DNA of 64,000 bases from contig OX597824.1 in the NCBI GenBank assembly GCA_951406725.2, positions 91,946,001 through 92,010,000 of the forward strand. Direction: 5' to 3'. Positions within the stretch are counted from its first letter, which is position 1. Every line of letters starts with the position of its first letter. The position numbers and the translations under genes are program-made. The notes under the pieces are model-generated. The model did not search any database. It was not told the DNA's origin and saw only the letters and a program-made list of their open reading frames with translations. Of the stretch, positions 1,332 to 58,618 are shown piece after piece. Source of the stretch: Octopus vulgaris. Taxonomy: Eukaryota.

Positions 1332-2205
1332 TATCAGGTCATCCCATAAGTTATGTCCGAATTTTGAATAATAGAAAAACAAGTGATTAAATGTTATATT
1401 TAATTTAAATTTAATCATCAATGTACTTTCCCTGATTCTCTATAACTTCCTTTTTTTTAATCCCATTAATGTAAAACTTTGGGATTAAAACTTTTTGATC
1501 CCATCAATGTTAAACTCTTTTGGTTTCAAAGCGAAGAACTCTGAAATGTCAGTTTCTACCTCCTCCTGGATTGCGAAAGTTATGTCCCCAAAATGATTCT
1601 GTAAACAACGAAACAAATGGTAGTTTGTAGGAGCAATGCTGGGAGAATAAGGTGGATGAGGAATTTTTTTCCAACCAAGCTCTTCGATCTCCTGTGATGT
1701 GATCTTTGCAGTGTGGTATCGCGCATTGTCATGATGAAACATCACTCCTTTTCGATTCACGAAAGCGGATCTTTGTTCTTCAAAGCTTGGTTCAAACGCT
1801 CTAATTGCTGACAGTAGACTTGAGCATTGATTGTTGCATTAGGTGGTAACAATTCAAAGGGAATTACTCCTTTGCAATCCCACCAGATAGAGAGAAGAAC
1901 CTTTTTTCCCATGAAGTCCCCTTCTCTGTTGTGGTTGAGCTTTTTCCCTTTTACCAAGCCACTGTTTACGACGTTTAACATTTCGATAGAAGATGAAAGT
2001 CTATCCCAAAAAGAGTAAAATGCGTTCGCGAGGATAGAGAGAAGAGCAGATGTCAACTCGGGATTTGCGGTTGCTTTCGGACAATTCATGAGGCTCCCAT
2101 TTTCCAAGTTTAGGAACCTTTCCAAGTTGTTGAAGATAACGATGAACAACCTTTTCAATAGTCTTGATTCTCAAGACTATTGAAAAGGTTGCAAGACGCA
2201 ACAAA
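1332..2205 (-). mobile_element. Degenerate mariner (Tc1/mariner) transposon; fragmented transposase pseudogene, one end preserved
   Basis: Overlapping frameshifted ORFs give WEPHEL, KVLLSIWWD, HHDNARYH, PHPPYSPSIAPTNYHLF (mariner YSPDLAP.D motif) and C-terminal EVIENQGKYIDD*. A TA followed by TCAGGTCATCCCATAAG at 1332 looks like a terminal repeat. Confidence 0.9.
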
Positions 2206-21438: not shown

Positions 21439-21480
<42 letters not shown>

Positions 21481-21488
<8 letters not shown>

Positions 21489-21586
21489 TCAATATAGGTG
21501 GCAAAAAAATTTTGTAGAATTTTTTGCCACCAGCGGCCTAGTGGGAAAAATTAAATAGTCATAGACCATTTTAAAGTTCAACATCA
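21481..21586 (-). repeat. Inverted partial unit heading the tandem array
   Basis: Reverse complement of 21640-21745 (tgatgttgaac...attgattaattat). Confidence 0.9.
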
Positions 21587-21900
21587 TTGGCTGTTATTTC
21601 TAGTGGGTGAATGGCCTATTATGGCCGTTCCTTGATTGTTGATGTTGAACTTAAAAATGGTCTATGACTATTTAATTTTTTCCCACTAGGCTGGTGGCAA
21701 AAAATTCTACAAAATTTTTTTTGCCACCCTATATTGATTAATTATGAATTTTCTGGTTAATTCCGTAATGGAATCGACGGCTTATATTTATTTGCTGCCG
21801 ATAAATTTGCTGCGAGTGCGACGATTTGAAAATTTTAGGTCAGATATAACCTTGGCAAGGTCGGAAATGCCTCGTGAAAATATCTGTTCCGACTTGGGCT

Positions 21901-22007
21901 ATTTCTTACTGAAGAATCTGAGGGCCTATGGAAGATTGGCTTGATTTAATTTAATCAGGTTAGTTTACCATTAATCAGCAGATGAAACGGTGCATCGTAT
22001 AAGAAAT
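21901..22007 (+). ncRNA. Type I hammerhead ribozyme, copy 1 (predicted cleavage after A21999)
   Basis: ATTTCTTA-CTGAAGA-ATCTG-[58 nt]-CAGAT-GAAA-CGGTGCATCG-TA-TAAGAAAT: 8-bp stem I, 5-bp basal stem II, near-palindromic stem III ACGGTGCATCGT, GUA site. Confidence 0.9.
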
Positions 22008-22392
22008 TACAGGGTAAATGTTTTTTAAATTTTCTCCTGGTTTACGGAATTAATTTTTATTTGCGGTTGAAGCTTTGGCTGTTATTTCTAGTGGGTGAAT
22101 GGCCTATTATGGCCGTTCCTTGATTGTTGATGTTGAACTTAAAAATGGTCTATGACTATTTAATTTTTTCCCACTAGGCCGCTGGTGGCAAAAAAATTCT
22201 ACAAAATTTTTTTTGCCACCCTATATTGATTAATTATGAATTTTCTGGTTAATTCCGTAATGGAATCGACGGCTTATATTTATTTGCTGCCGATAAATTT
22301 GGCGCGAGTGCGACGATTTGAAAATTTTAGGTCAGATATAACATTGGCAAGGTCGGAAATGCCTCGTGAAAATATCTGTTCCGACTTGGGCT

Positions 22393-22499
22393 ATTTCTTA
22401 CTGAAGAATCTGAGGGCCTATGGAAGATTGGCTTGATTTAATTTAATCAGGTTAGTTTACCATTAATCAGCAGATGAAACGGTGCATCGTATAAGAAAT
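22393..22499 (+). ncRNA. Type I hammerhead ribozyme, copy 2 (predicted cleavage after A22491)
   Basis: Same sequence as copy 1, offset 492 nt. Confidence 0.9.
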
Positions 22500-22883
22500 T
22501 ACAGGGTAAATGTTTTTTAAATTTTCTCCTGGTTTACGGAATTAATTTTTATTTGCGGTTGAAGCTTTGGCTGTTATTTCTAGTGGGTGAATGGCCTATT
22601 ATGGCCGTTCCTTGATTGTTGATGTTGAACTTAAAAATGGTCTATGACTATTTAATTTTTTCCCACTAGGCCGCTGGTGGCAAAAAAATTCTACAAAATT
22701 TTTTTGCCACCCTATATTGATTAATTATGAATTTTCTGGTTAATTCCGTAATGGAATCGACGGCTTATATTTATTTGCTGCCGATAAATTTGGCGCGAGT
22801 GCGACGATTTGAAAATTTTAGGTCAGATATAACCTTGGCAAGGTCGGAAATGCCTCGTGAAAATATCTGTTCCGACTTGGGCT

Positions 22884-22990
22884 ATTTCTTACTGAAGAAT
22901 CTGAGGGCCTATGGAAGATTGGCTTGATTTAATTTAATCAGGTTAGTTTACCATTAATCAGCAGATGAAACGGTGCATCGTATAAGAAAT
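22884..22990 (+). ncRNA. Type I hammerhead ribozyme, copy 3 (predicted cleavage after A22982)
   Basis: Same sequence as copy 2, offset 491 nt. Confidence 0.9.
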
Positions 22991-24313
22991 TACAGGGTAA
23001 ATGTTTTTTAAATTTTCTCCTGGTTTACGGAATTAATTTTTATTTGCGGTTGAAGCTTTGGCTGTTATTTCTAGTGGGTGAATGGCCTATTATGATATAT
23101 ATATATATATATATATATATACGATATATATACGACTTCAACCACATCTCTAGGCTAATATTGAGATTTATACTGCAATATGTGGCGTGCTACAGGGTTA
23201 GATATTTCAAAAATAATTATTTCACGTTCTCCCGAATTTTTATAGAATACGTATGACATAGAGAGAATGGGAGAATAGGAGACTGAGAGAAAGAGAATCG
23301 GAGAGAACATTAAACTTTCTTATTTGTATTTCACAAATGTCCAGAAATTTAATTCAGTCTGTTAGTATTATCTAAGATATAATATTCTGTATCGTGTGTA
23401 TGTGTGTGCTACCGTATGTGTGTGGGTGTATGTATAGATATAAGTATATATGTATGTGTATATATATATATGTATATATATACATATGAACTTATACATA
23501 TACTGTATAAGCATATATATCTAATGTAACATGATGTTATATTATATATATATATATGTATATATATTATCTAATGTATATTGTTTCGAAGTCAGAAGAA
23601 AACACGAAAAAATTTGAGAGAAGCTCCACAATTCTGTAGTTTGGAAGCGCATTGATAGTAAATAAATACACACACACACACACACTCACACACGCACACA
23701 CACTCTGACATTCATACTTCACAGCTACATGAGCACCCAAACACGCACACATACACATGGAGATAAGGAAAAGGCCTTAAATGCGCACGCACATACCTTA
23801 ATTGGTATACACACTCTCACACACACATATATATGCACGTTTATTTATATGGTAAATATATATATATATATATATGTATAGTTACACACGCACAAACAGA
23901 TATATATATATACATAGATAGAGAGTGAGAGAGAGAGGGAGAGAAAGCCATATATATATAATGTTATAGCTATATATGCTGGTGTATATATATATATATG
24001 TATATATATATACACACATGCTAACATTTGTCAAAGGAAGCTGAAATTGCAGCCTGAATGAATTGACTTTAAAAAATGTTTAATGTCTATTGTCAGAATT
24101 AACTGCAAAAACGGATTCCAAATCTTGGTGTCCTTCATGTCACAAGTAATTTTTTTGTCACAAGTAATTTTTTGTATATTCTTATATGAGTCGCTTTTAC
24201 TGTTTTTTTTCTTATTTATATCGGATAAACAGTAATATTTTTCAAGCTTCCTTCTAAACAACTTATTTAAAGGTGGTATGTGAGATTTTGATATATTCAA
24301 CGACAGAGACAGG

Positions 24314-25025: not shown

Positions 25026-25523
25026 TTATAATTTACTTCTGCACTTCCTTCCTCTTTTCAGTCTGTTGTGTCTCTGGAGACGTAAACTCGCGTTTGGATA
25101 CAAAACACAAAATAATATTTTTTTGTTTTTCACTTTCCTGTGGAAGATGTTGTTCTGCTTTCGGTATAATCTAATGTGTCCTCTGTACAGCCGAAAATGT
25201 CTGACGCCTGTTTTGTTATCCTCCGTGGTTCCTTCTGTGTTATGCGGCGTGGTTCCTGCTGTTGCATCCTGTTTGGTGCCTGTTATGTTATGGTGTGTGC
25301 TTCCTGTTGTGGTATCCTCCGTGTTTCCTTCTGCGGTATCTTGTGTGGTTCCTGATGTGTTATGCTCTGTGGTTCCTGCTGTTCTATCCTGTTTGGTGCC
25401 TGTTATCTTATGGTGTCTGCTTCCTGTTGTGGTATCCTGCTTGATTCCTGTTGTGTTATCCTGTGCGTTGCCCGTATCAATGATGGATTTTGTGGCTCTG
25501 GTGTCGGTCGGAGATTGGGGAAA
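25026..25523 (-). CDS. Candidate coding exon: Thr/Gly/Asp-rich 8-aa repeat (mucin-like) peptide
   Basis: Stop-free frame of 165 codons starting right after tttgtAG: FPQSPTDTRATKSIIDTGNAQDNTTGIKQDTTTGSRHHKITGTKQDRTAGTTEHNTSGTTQDTAEGNTEDTTTG... It is the only open minus frame across the repeat, and the Gly codon alternates GGA/GGC. No start codon or homology support. Confidence 0.3.
   Translation of the reverse strand, partial: FPQSPTDTRATKSIIDTGNAQDNTTGIKQDTTTGSRHHKITGTKQDRTAGTTEHNTSGTTQDTAEGNTEDTTTGSTHHNITGTKQDATAGTTPHNTEGTTEDNKTGVRHFRLYRGHIRLYRKQNNIFHRKVKNKKILFCVLYPNASLRLQRHNRLKRGRKCRSKL
25207..25470. repeat. 24-bp minisatellite, 11 diverged units, no indels, with 120-bp higher-order period
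   Basis: Units begin with CCT at 25207 and every 24 nt thereafter (e.g. cctgttgtgttatcctgtgcgttg). Units 3-5 recur as units 8-10. Confidence 0.9.
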
Positions 25524-33697: not shown

Positions 33698-35074
33698 TTA
33701 ATCAGTGCATGATTAATTGAGGGTGATGACGATTCAGGTTTCCTCGTGTGGTGACATCAACTATCTCGAGGCTTTCTGTTCGTGGCAAATGAGAGAAAAT
33801 AGCGCTGCTTTCAGTACCACCATCATCATCAACAACTGCAGCTGCAGCCATAACAGCAACAATGACAGCAACAACAACACTTAAGTCAGCTGAATTGACT
33901 GTGCTGCATTTCAGGCCCGGTTTAACTCCACGAGTACGAAATTACATCAGCTTCATTTACCCGAGATGCGTGCAGAGTGATGAATCTGTTCTGCACGCAC
34001 CCGTTTAGTACTCGAGAACTGCTGACATGTGGAGATAATTCGACGTCTGCCCCCACATGGAGAGTAAAATGCAGTTATAAGTCCACTGTGAAAATGGCAC
34101 CGACGCCTCCCTTTAACTGGAAAGGATAGGTAATATTTCTCTGCCTTGTAGCTTTAGCGAAAGATGTTGTGTGGTGGATCAAGCTAAAAGGGCTTTAACG
34201 AAAGGGGTTGTGTCGTGGATCAGGCTAAAAGGGCTGAAGGCAGACAACTTCTCCTATGACCAAACACTTACATACTCTCTTTTAAGCTTCAGGTGAAAGA
34301 TAAGTAAGGGTAGTCATGTTAGAACTGTCATGGACGTACTGTCTTCCGCCAAATTTGTAAAGGTGGTTAAGTATGGAGAATATGTTCGAAGTGGACCAGC
34401 ATATGGTTAGTGTGCACCGGTAGATAGAAGAAGGAAAAACGAGGCGGGCACTTGCTTCGTGATCAAGATAACCAAAGCTTTGTGATGTTTTCAACATTCG
34501 GCGGCTTCCCTCTTCTGGGAATTCTTGACAGTTTGAAATTTATTCTTTCTTTGTAAATATTAATACAATTTCTACGGCAGCCAACTGGTAGAATCTCTAC
34601 TGCATCGGACAAAATACTTAACAGCATTTCATGTGACTCTTTACGCTGTGATAGACTTTGCCTTTCGGGGGTCATTAAAATTAATACCAGCTGAACACCG
34701 GAGCCGATGTAATAGATTTAGACTCTTCCTTCAATTACCCGAAACTGCTGGCCTCGTGCCAAAATTATAAATCAGTGTAAGTACAGATATTTAAGCACTC
34801 TTTATTTTCGTGCAATCTGTTGGTGTATTATAACCATAGTATAACCAATGGTTAATAAAGAAGCCCTTCCTCGTTATTAAAGAAAGACTTCTTGTTGCCG
34901 TTGATGTTCTTTTCCTTGTCGTTCTTTTTTCCTCCCCTCCTACTCCTCCTCCTTTTTCTTTTTCTTCTTCTTCTTCTTCTTCTTCTTCTTCTTCTCCTCC
35001 TTCTCCTTCTTCTTATTCTTGTTGTTGTTGTTGTTCTTCTTCTTCTTCTTCTTCTTCTAATAACAATAGCAATG

Positions 35075-35115
<41 letters not shown>

Positions 35116-35152
35116 CTTTATAATAATAATAATAATGATAATAATAATAATG

Positions 35153-35205
<53 letters not shown>

Positions 35206-35227
35206 CTTTATAATAATAATAATAATG

Positions 35228-37579
<2,352 letters not shown>

Positions 37580-41830: not shown

Positions 41831-42129
41831 GTGTGCGTGTGTGCGTGTGTGCGTGTGTATATATATATATATGATAATATATATATATGCATTTATAGTT
41901 GTGTACAAGAGTGTATGTGCCAGTGTTTGTGGATGCATACGTATCTATATTCACAAAACTGAAGATACCCATTCGATTTACTACTGCGCAAATGTTTATG
42001 GTTTTGATATTATTCCATCCCTCTCTCACTTCTTTCAATCTCAGCCTCTCAATCCATCCCTCTTCTTGCATCTCTCGTGAATAAGTTCTCTCTTTGCTTG
42101 GCCACATGTATGTATCTATCTATTTATCC

Positions 42130-42243
<114 letters not shown>

Positions 42244-42267
42244 TTATCTATCTATCTATTTTTCTGC

Positions 42268-42346
<79 letters not shown>

Positions 42347-42377
42347 CCTTTCTATCTACCTACCTACCTACCTATCT

Positions 42378-43464
42378 ATGGCACCGCGAGTGTCGCGTTG
42401 CTCTCAAGCAACTCTGCCGTCCTGGGTCGACCTTAAGTGACTTCAACACAACCAAAGCATTCTATAGGGGTTTAGTGGAGGGGAGGTACGACGACGAGCT
42501 CGGGGCGAACCTGGACGTCGACGAGGAGTACCTGACCCGCCTGTTCAGGACGACTTTCGGGCCAGGGCCCATGGACAACTTCCAGAGATCCCTGGCCTGG
42601 CAGTGCTACCGAGAAGCGCTACCCGTTCGGGATAAGCTCTACAGACACGGCTCGAGAAACACGGGGCCGACCTGCCCGAGATGCGGTCAGAGCGACGAAA
42701 CCGTTCTGCACGCACTCGTTCAGTGTCCAACAATTTCCGACCTGTGGGCTTATGTCGAACAACTGCTGTCACGTGTGGGACGAGTCGGTTTATCAGCTGA
42801 GTCTATCGTCAATATTGTCACGCCTCCTTCCTTCAAACGGGAAGGAAGAGCTATTTTCATCATCCTTGTGGCTATGGCGAAAGAATGTATCTGGTGGACG
42901 CGTCTGAAAGGATTGGAGACAAACACTTTCCTCTCTGGTCAATCTCTCATCAACTTCTTCAAGTACCACTTGAAAAGGAAAGTGAGAGTAGAGAGGCAAG
43001 TTTTGTCTAGCGAATGTTTTAAAAAAAGATGGGTGAATGTAGCAAGAATGGCACGTATGAATGACGAAGCCACCTTGAGCATAGTCCTATGAACCCAGAA
43101 ATCGAAAACAGAGAGTTGCTTATTTGCAAAAAAAAAAAAAGAAATATAAAATGTGACTTCATTGACCGAGGTTACCGTGGTCTTTTCCGTAGGCTTTTCT
43201 TTCCACGGGTAAACCTCACCTGTCCTCCCCTTTACACTTCATATTGACATTTCTGTGATAACGATCCCTATTGATCAATTTTTTTTTCCTCTCCCCTTTT
43301 TTTTTAACCCCCTTTTTTTTGTCCTCTTTCTCTCCTTTTACGATCCCTTTTGATCGAAACTCCCCCTTCCTTTTTTTTTTTTTTTTTTTAAACCTTCAAA
43401 AGAAAAGCTCTACCTTGTAATTTGTTCTATCTGTGTGCAGCCCTGTGTGGCTAATAAAGAAACA

Positions 43465-57017: not shown

Positions 57018-57188
57018 GGGAGATGTACTCGCATATCAAGTGATTTGATCTGAGATCGTTGTGCTGAAACGAAAACAATTGCAGCGTGGAAGGTGTTTGT
57101 AAGCCATTTAGGAAACACACAAAAGCCGTTCGATTCACTTCAACATTTAAGTTTAATTTGTCAAAATATTTTCGTCGCTAAAATCCGT

Positions 57189-57234
<46 letters not shown>

Positions 57235-57305
57235 TGTACATATATACGACGGGCTTCTTTCAGTTTCCGTCTACCAAATTCACCCACAAGGCTTTGGACG
57301 GCCCG
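56715..57305 (-). mobile_element. SINE family A, interrupted in its TA tract by a ~170-bp insert (57018-57190)
   Basis: Tail half at 56715-56925 and head-proximal half at 57245-57305 are both reverse complements of family A. Confidence 0.7.
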
Positions 57306-57309
57306 AGAA

Positions 57310-57570
57310 CCCCCATCTGATGAGGTGCATCATAGACAGGGTAGCTAAGGAAGTCGGCATGGATGGGGCGCTGATCAATTTGGATCAATCAAAAGCTTTC
57401 AGCAGGGTAGACCATCACTACTTAGAGGCTGTCCTTCAAGCGGCGGGTTTCGGTCCCATCTTCCGCAGTTGGAACGCTGCCTTATACGGCGGCATCCGCT
57501 CGGTATTTCGCGTAAATGGTCATCTATCCAGACCATTTAACATCGTGCGTTCGGTGTGTCATGTATGGCT
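57310..57570 (+). pseudogene. Tx1/L1-like reverse transcriptase fragment
   Basis: GALINLDQSKAFSRVDHHYLEAVL...GFG...VNGHLSRPFNIVRSV matches the L1/Tx1 RT D..KAFD.V.H region up to just before RQG. Confidence 0.75.
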
Positions 57571-58618
57571 CCTCTCGTCATTTCTTTGTAAGGATATTTC
57601 TTCCGTTCTATTATAATCTCTGTTCTATTATGATGGGTGAGGAACTAGGTACACTCTGTGAAATAATCTATATGTTTGGAGCTCAGGATCAAGAAATGTC
57701 ACAGCAGGAATGCACCAACTACTACACAATCTATAGATATTTCTGGATGATATGAAGGTATGGCCACTCTGTGCCCAGCATAATTTTAGATTACTCACGA
57801 ATTTTGTGGAATAATTACGACTGAGAAAATTATTCGAGGAAAATTTATTGAAAATTTTATCAGATTAAGGGATTACGTTTAGGAGCTGTTGATGTTAGAC
57901 ACTGCATTCTATTGCGTATGTAGATATGCTAAATATTATGTTATTTTTCTGACTATGACCAGCTCCTTTTGTAGGAATGCTATCGGCCATATTGTTTTTG
58001 TCGTTGGAGTCTACATAGTGATTGCCTTCGGTAAGAATAAAACATTCTCTGTCGCTTTTTCTCCTGGATCTTACATAGGCAGTGTGTATATAAGAAAGCT
58101 AGCGACAACGTAGGAAGAGTTGATACGCTACATAGTTTCTTTTTCAATATTTCTTGCCAAAATATGTTTTTCACAGACGTACAATTTAGTTTTCATTCAG
58201 TGTGGTAGCCGACAGACACATATGTTGATTGACTAGAAATTTTTCATTACCCTCTCTTCTAGCTACTTCTTACTGCATCGCCTTCTTGAACTGCCATCGG
58301 TTTACTTGACATGTCTGGCAATTTTGTCAGCTCGTTAAGGAAAGCGACGAAGAAAAATGACTGTATCTCGCCTAAATACTTGAGATATCCGCAAATGTCA
58401 ACACCTTCCAGTTCTCGACATTTTCCATTATGAATGCAATAACAACAATTCTAAAGTTTGTTTGAAAGATTCACAAAATATATTGAACATATTTCACAGA
58501 GATCAGGAGAACAACAAGTTATTTGCAGTTTGCTCGAAATACGAGAAAACATATTTTCTTCCTGTATGAGGAATTTTATGATTACTGCTACAACTATATA
58601 CTACTACTACTACTACTG

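Follow-up and report, generated by a model that had tools for sequence, protein, structure and literature searches.

Paired insertion ends of a young non-LTR retrozyme family in the Octopus vulgaris genome

Known systems and the locus in the window

Non-LTR retrozymes were defined in a study that described their RNA circles in coral, mussel, and axolotl and named Penelope-like elements (PLEs) as candidate mobilisers (PMC7229834). Those of frogs have been linked to PLE terminal repeats, with cleavage in one of nine elements tested; kinship and co-occurrence were shown in that work, and the mechanism was called unresolved (10.64898/2026.07.22.740005). A PLE protein was found in vitro to cut both strands of AT-rich DNA, with reverse transcription starting at two internal sites downstream of the hammerhead, the gap between which is the genomic tail (PMC11167929), and such a tail is described on one of two inverted repeats (PMC3846280; PMC8557442). 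Statements on these publications refer to the parts of each that are used here. The movement of animal retrozymes is still a hypothesis in print, and the insertion ends of a young family record the reaction.

The window, i.e., the whole 64-kb stretch of DNA that was analysed, harbours a real, young non-LTR retrozyme, which is an element of known kind; the novelty lies in how the insertions of its family are built, with ends paired at two internal sites, A and B. The tandem units of the element fall within the size class of approximately 150–1000 bp, and each of three successive units has a type I hammerhead. It is devoid of protein coding and of LTR-type organisation, is low in GC, and belongs to a dispersed multi-locus family, as seen in the best 40 of 1359 candidates. 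An open reading frame (ORF) with reverse transcriptase (RT) and GIY-YIG endonuclease is lacking, and the element is not classed as a PLE. The marks of PLE mobilisation are present, namely inverted and tandem arms, a tail on one arm, two internal 3' ends, and a microsatellite target. The features of the locus are as follows:

21440–21483, no strand: left (TA)n target microsatellite (tandem-repeat analysis)
21484–21586, minus strand: inverted arm of 103 bp, which in unit numbering from the ribozyme cut has its outer end at 238 (site B) and its inner end at 129 (95% identity)
21587–23094, plus strand: forward arm of 3.07 head-to-tail units, from unit position 76 to 112 (repeat analysis and arm mapping)
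21901–22007, plus strand: type I hammerhead 1, predicted cut after 21999 (descriptor; compensatory changes relative to a sister family), with stem I at 21901–21908/22000–22007, core at 21909–21915, extended stem II at 21916–21983, GAAA at 21984–21987, and stem III with a palindromic loop at 21988–21997 (parts from the descriptor)
22393–22499, plus strand: type I hammerhead 2, predicted cut after 22491 (descriptor)
22884–22990, plus strand: type I hammerhead 3, predicted cut after 22982 (descriptor)
22000–22491, plus strand: predicted 492-nt monomer, cut to cut (circular fold against shuffles)
22492–22982, plus strand: predicted 491-nt monomer (cut-to-cut distance)
22070–22237, plus strand: structured segment, present in every unit, with putative RT start sites A (~22131, unit 132) and B (~22237, unit 238) (arm ends and conserved fold)
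23095–23132, no strand: right (TA)n target microsatellite (tandem-repeat analysis)

Tandem-repeat analysis of the 64-kb window gave a period of 492, with 3.1 copies and 99% matches, at 21587–23094, where the original prediction had placed an array of three units. In the phase used by that prediction, the units measure 488, 492, and 491 nt with a remainder of 37 nt, and the alignment columns that differ among them number 7, 7, and 2; the predicted monomers, counted from cut to cut, come to the 492 and 491 nt foreseen. The units were said to encode no enzyme and to sit in (TA)n; their longest stop-free frame has 68 codons, and (TA)n lies on both sides of the insertion. The start of the element at 21587 was wrong, the inverted arm having been overlooked: since 21484–21586 repeats a portion of the unit in inverted orientation, the insertion within (TA)n extends from 21484 to 23094. 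Its two arms point outward into (TA)n. The inverted arm differs from the unit mostly within homopolymer runs, while the forward arm has a blunt inner junction at unit position 76 and an outer end at 112, 20 nt before the usual site A. The GC content of the 2-kb bins around the array is 0.26–0.33.

The window also contains other transposon fragments (RVT_1 at 34859–36688, plus strand; zf-RVT at 42085–43089, plus strand; a weak RVT_1 at 57182–57613, plus strand; and Transposase_1 at 1760–2170, minus strand) and a tandem repeat at 25207–25465 with periods of 24 and 120; no tRNA gene was found in the 64 kb. A short GC-rich motif at 22297–22308 is kept in the retrozyme and in its sister family, although unit 1 of the array in the window has an altered form. 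It resembles what we take to be the consensus of an E2F site and is a possible internal promoter element.

The hammerhead ribozyme and an older sister family

A type I hammerhead descriptor (stem I of 8 bp, core CUGANGA, stem II of 5 bp, GAAA, stem III, and UH) matched exactly three places in the 64-kb window and one of 3000 dinucleotide-shuffled units. The three motifs, each with the core, GAAA, UH, and three stems of a type I hammerhead, and their predicted cuts after 21999, 22491, and 22982 are those of the original prediction, which had also suggested a check against Rfam. This check failed: no hammerhead was returned at the gathering threshold or at E ≤ 5, and 20 weak matches scored far under their gathering thresholds. 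Stem II holds an insertion of 58 nt, which is probably why Rfam misses the motif. The internal loops of this extended stem II might be candidates for the loop 1/loop 2 tertiary contact.

The predicted fold of the 117-nt ribozyme region is more stable than those of its shuffles (z −2.98), and the circular fold of 22000–22491 reaches −135.6 kcal/mol against −108.3 ± 5.7 for 40 shuffles. The minimum-energy fold is without stem III, whose 5' strand pairs with part of the core in the predicted monomer; therefore, a lone retrozyme unit may be inactive as a ribozyme. Within a single unit, stem III has little stability (−1.2 kcal/mol), and its self-complementary loop is predicted to give a 12-bp duplex as a dimer (−19.5), which matches the dimeric hammerhead mode described previously (PMC4209133).

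Loop III (22479–22491 in the window, together with the family copies) occurs in three main forms of 89, 36, and 22 copies, two of which are self-complementary via a two-base change, while the third is not and has a weaker predicted dimer. Further hammerhead-like motifs with an extended stem II of 40–60 nt were seen in other families, in the flanks of L098, L196, L068, L042, L026, L121, L207, L063, and L067, and the genome seems to be rich in them. For a squid, 235 Rfam hammerhead loci were given in the genome paper.

The sister family is older, with 2554 candidates and a unit of 477 nt that is identical to the retrozyme unit in 354 of 517 columns, and its arms share the two-end layout, at ~130 and ~234. 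Six of the 14 hammerhead pairs are changed on both sides between the two families, and 95% of the hammerhead cells pair, against 35%–43% if the structure is slid. There is one split between two families, so the covariation counts as six events, not 24; the structure of the ribozyme is conserved across both families. The A/B segment likewise keeps a common fold in both, with 35 predicted pairs, one of which has a two-sided change. A 66-codon frame starting near site B was considered as coding and rejected, as the sister family does not keep it. At the second core position of the hammerhead-like motif, C stands for U in the sister family (L110–L139) and in one PLE family (L200).

Paired ends, template, and the ribozyme footprint

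The genome (2.8 Gb in 227 contigs) was searched with the unit, and the best 40 of 1359 candidates, which are not a random sample, were scored. They gave 254 matches on many contigs with listed identities of 95%–100%, the full-length copies being mostly 98%–100% identical. The count of copies that the original prediction had proposed thus found a dispersed multi-locus family, and its copies, at ~1% divergence, bear out the youth assigned to it. The retrozyme-like identity also stood as far as the tandem hammerhead units, the absence of coding, and the dispersed family are concerned.

The 40 loci were mapped into 79 arms of at least 60 nt and at least 95% identity, with the unit numbered from the ribozyme cut. 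The outer end lies at unit 124–134 (site A) in 37 of the 79 arms and at 228–240 (site B) in 33; nine arms end outside A and B, mostly within rearranged loci. Site A is thus ~132 nt and site B ~238 nt downstream of the ribozyme cut, with a spacing of 106 nt, and (TA)n adjoins 69 of the 70 arm ends at A or B. Among 33 loci with arms in two orientations, A is paired with B in 30 (hand count, with L022, which ends at 242, counted as B) and with another A in none. Adjacent B/B arms occur in L038, inside a 508-bp inverted duplication of the flank, and two other such loci, L051 and the window (forward arm ending at 112), are atypical; arms of a single orientation were found in 7 of the 40 loci.

The stretch was found in 20 public runs of 8 studies, none of which is recorded as RNA. 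At site A and in the vicinity of site B, loose (TA)n ends recur in contigs of independent public runs; therefore, the paired-end pattern is not an assembly artefact. A single-locus duplication or an assembly artefact as the source of the array is excluded by the multi-locus family together with these same ends in independent runs. Contigs from three presumed-RNA runs and an unclassified one span most of the unit; as such contigs carry no information on ends, strand, or level, they were not counted as evidence of transcription. In contigs of other samples, an inverted joint lies 12 nt after a cut (X13 contig 10), and at the X15 joint (22934–22983) a deletion ends exactly at the first base after a cut. 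Two rearranged loci (L038:1608–4381 and L024:1897–6723) have an inverted duplication of part of the insertion and of the flank, which may have arisen by fold-back at integration or by later rearrangement.

The best explanation of the locus, to which we give a probability of roughly 0.8, is a non-LTR retrozyme that is itself non-autonomous and for which a Penelope-like (Neptune-type) RT/GIY-YIG enzyme acts in trans as the mobiliser. Mobilisation of the Penelope type was already part of the original prediction and is now supported by evidence that was absent from it, the fixed paired 3' ends and the inverted arm. We infer that the array is transcribed and that the hammerhead cuts some of the junctions. 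The enzyme would bind the structured segment 70–240 nt past the cut and cleave both strands of the (TA)n target, and both DNA ends would prime reverse transcription at fixed internal sites of one RNA, A (~132) and B (~238). Each cDNA would pass 0–9 ribozyme junctions on a covalently continuous template, either a ligated circle or an uncleaved multimer, and would stop at the ribozyme more often than by chance; the inner ends would then be joined through microhomology or short filler. In this way, the insertion anatomy ties retrozyme spread to two-site priming of the Penelope type.

The tandem units could instead have grown in place, as has been proposed for retrozyme arrays (10.64898/2026.07.22.740005), if a single unit, a remnant of a PLE terminal repeat, was inserted and then expanded by unequal crossover. 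A few variants common to adjacent units of one arm (L029 and L028) suggest some later local duplication. As the origin of the arrays, local expansion is very improbable: at most loci and at ~1% divergence, both opposed arms are multi-unit with a fixed outer and a free inner phase, and the inner ends cluster at the ribozyme.

The two arms of a locus resemble each other more than those of different loci. At 11 diagnostic sites, they match in haplotype at 23 of 27 informative loci, as compared with a mean of 4.6 and a maximum of 12 over 5000 permutations, and substitution distances are 0.39% inside one arm, 0.53% from arm to arm, and 1.21% from locus to locus. Subfamilies of different timing could explain part of this haplotype sharing; four locus-private variants occur in all covering units of both arms, unlike what mere subfamily timing would give. 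Among 29 simple inner junctions, an overlap of 1–9 nt is seen in 20, a blunt joint in one, and filler in eight.

Similar arms might also arise if one cDNA folded back and primed itself, the fixed ends then coming from resolution by the endonuclease and not from two primings. Self-priming has been put forward to account for PLE inversions (PMC3846280), and an origin of the tail by resolution through the endonuclease has been suggested (PMC8557442); near-palindromic junctions are found in L045 and L049, L038 and L024 are fold-back-like, and the short inverted arm of the window could be such a copy. Fold-back is nevertheless unlikely as the general route, since 11 of 28 simple A/B loci (L024, L029, L038, and L047 having been dropped from this set) have arms of such lengths that neither can have been copied from its counterpart, and the arm lengths are uncorrelated (rho −0.06, n = 29).

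As many as 60 of 66 arms run across at least one cut site, and up to nine, and all 149 complete cut-site junctions are free of indels; therefore, the template was continuous across the cut, and sloppy end-to-end jumps are unlikely. We lean slightly towards a circle as this template. The rolling reverse transcription on a circle that was originally predicted is compatible with these data, which do not separate it from the copying of an uncleaved linear multimer. The alternative template, a linear multimer transcribed from an array already in place and cleaved in part, has a little less than an even chance, all other steps being as above. Against a single monomeric circle and in line with such a multimer, 11 of 20 repeated variants private to one locus are missing from part of its units, some of them spaced two units apart (L023, L029, and L025). 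Three of these 11 sit in the rearranged loci L024 and L038, and such partial variants could come from later duplication, conversion, or consensus errors as well as from linear multimers. The arms of L043, L045, L053, and L054 begin at or a few bases from the cut, as a cleaved 5' end would, and unprocessed RNA was the dominant substrate in vitro (PMC11167929). On the other side, 9 of the 20 private variants are found throughout the units that cover them, with four shared by both arms, and heterogeneity was seen in only 8 of 284 locus-by-site tests. Moreover, arms reach nine units, and 5'-truncated copying would presumably shorten the arrays in each round unless they were regrown.

The inner ends carry a footprint of the ribozyme. 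Seventeen of 79 are no more than 12 nt away from the cut, where 4.0 are expected (P 4e-7), a count that equal windows never reached in 5000 simulations, and 14 of 69 do so with three rearranged loci dropped (3.5 expected, P 8e-6); the family-search query behind these loci was not phased at the cut. Approximately 8% of encounters with the site stop there (12/146). The coordinates of new loci, from a set of 45 obtained with a query phased at the cut and with inner ends visible at unit positions 2–258 only, gave 7 of 28 visible ends at positions 2–13 (1.3 expected), or 5 of 26 after removal of two selection-prone cases (P 0.006). The pile-up is absent in the sister family, where 3 of 47 inner ends are near the cut and 2.5 are expected.

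It may be that this pile-up reflects stalling of the RT at a folded hammerhead, or at a ligation scar, and not cleavage in vivo, a reading that falls somewhat short of even odds. Six of the 14 near-cut ends are at offsets +4 to +12, i.e., the 3' edge of stem I, and several extend 2–10 nt beyond the cut, as stalling would have it. Three further strong hairpins of the unit, by contrast, when examined in windows of equal size, hold only 4, 5, and 2 ends against the 14 at the cut, and 8 of the 69 ends fall at −6 to +3, where 1.4 are expected. Cleavage was also unneeded for insertion in the one PLE tested in vitro (PMC11167929), and the catalytic core is hidden in the predicted monomer fold, and both points weigh against the main reading.

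A more elaborate and rather doubtful proposal joins these points. One RNA circle made by the ribozyme would sit on one Penelope-type RT dimer, with priming at two sites that are set by structure and separated by 106 nt. Two rolling cDNAs would result, a share of which would be ended when the hammerhead cleaved their template in the germ line; the enzyme would be recruited by RNA shape, without sequence kinship of the element to any living PLE. If true, the insertions would be genomic evidence for in vivo hammerhead action within the PLE cycle.

Penelope-like families and comparison with known systems

PLEs were detected by a GIY-YIG search and two protein searches, and three families were examined among ~25,000 candidate places. 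All three are young and have intact frames of 775–781 residues with RT and GIY-YIG endonuclease, and in one of them many copies are identical across the 300 residues searched. The 781-residue protein has a CX4CX2C motif preceding the endonuclease, a motif given for the Neptune and Nematis clades (PMC8557442), and the nearest named relatives of one protein are mollusc-associated, with 49%–55% identity. PLEs are usually described with a single ORF; in two of the young families (L103 and L093, 781 aa; L205, 4271-nt unit), a long upstream frame was seen in a different reading frame, and it has 454 codons in the family with the 4271-nt unit.

All three families end in (TA)n at two sites ~32–33 nt apart, and in one of them the first end site is ~139 nt past its own hammerhead-like cut. 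Thirteen regions were picked as inverted pairs among the matches listed, and in all 12 informative inverted two-arm loci (L200–L209, L211, and L212) the short end is paired with the long end. This strict short/long end rule constrains the PLE mechanism and suggests asymmetric engagement of one RNA by both target ends. The inner ends of 10 two-arm loci in one PLE family are not at its ribozyme-like site, a comparison that has no power given the 4271-nt unit.

The retrozyme unit was compared with 50 PLE-bearing stretches and the units of both families with 60 more (blastn, word size 7), and no convincing DNA similarity was found in these 110. The matches were one unrelated 57-nt insertion of the unit (L062) and two marginal ones (E 0.26 and 0.034). 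No chimeric retrozyme/PLE insertion occurs in 69 retrozyme loci and the window. Against the PLE reading speak the lack of a similar autonomous element among these stretches, in which three families were examined of ~25,000 places, and the A–B spacing of 106 nt, which is three times the known PLE tails of 30–40 nt. The same genome holds three intact PLE proteins, and the enzyme, the circular or linear form of the template, and the role of the cut are thus testable in vitro.

The family and the paired A/B ends of a retrozyme were not found in the literature consulted, while subscription papers, repeat databases, and supplements may hold a description. The element is similar to the animal non-LTR retrozymes of coral, mussel, and axolotl, as far as these are described in the sources cited, in that non-coding, GC-poor units, each a few hundred bases long, are repeated head to tail, and in its one type I hammerhead per unit with a palindromic loop III, and the co-existing PLEs (PMC7229834; 10.64898/2026.07.22.740005). 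It is unlike those accounts in the 58-nt insertion of stem II, with which Rfam misses the motif, in insertions built of two arms whose tails face outward and whose 3' ends lie at two fixed and paired sites, and in having no matching PLE terminal repeat among the three families tested.

Chlamys MRC1 is comparable as a non-autonomous PLE parasite with multicopy head-to-tail insertions (PMC8557442). As a rule, the 3' ends of the Chlamys elements described there are like those of an autonomous family, whereas the retrozyme matched none of the three tested, and its unit carries a hammerhead, unlike non-autonomous Chlamys elements such as MRC1.

The GIY-YIG PLEs Neptune and Poseidon, in the parts of the work cited, differ in having an ORF, a tail of 30–40 nt in place of 106, and a minimal hammerhead, that of the retrozyme being fuller and its inner ends enriched at the cut. 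The retrozyme is like them in its head-to-head inverted arms with a tail on one arm, its two internal 3' ends past a hammerhead, its AT-rich or (TA)n target, and the microhomology at its inner junctions (PMC11167929; PMC8557442; PMC3846280).
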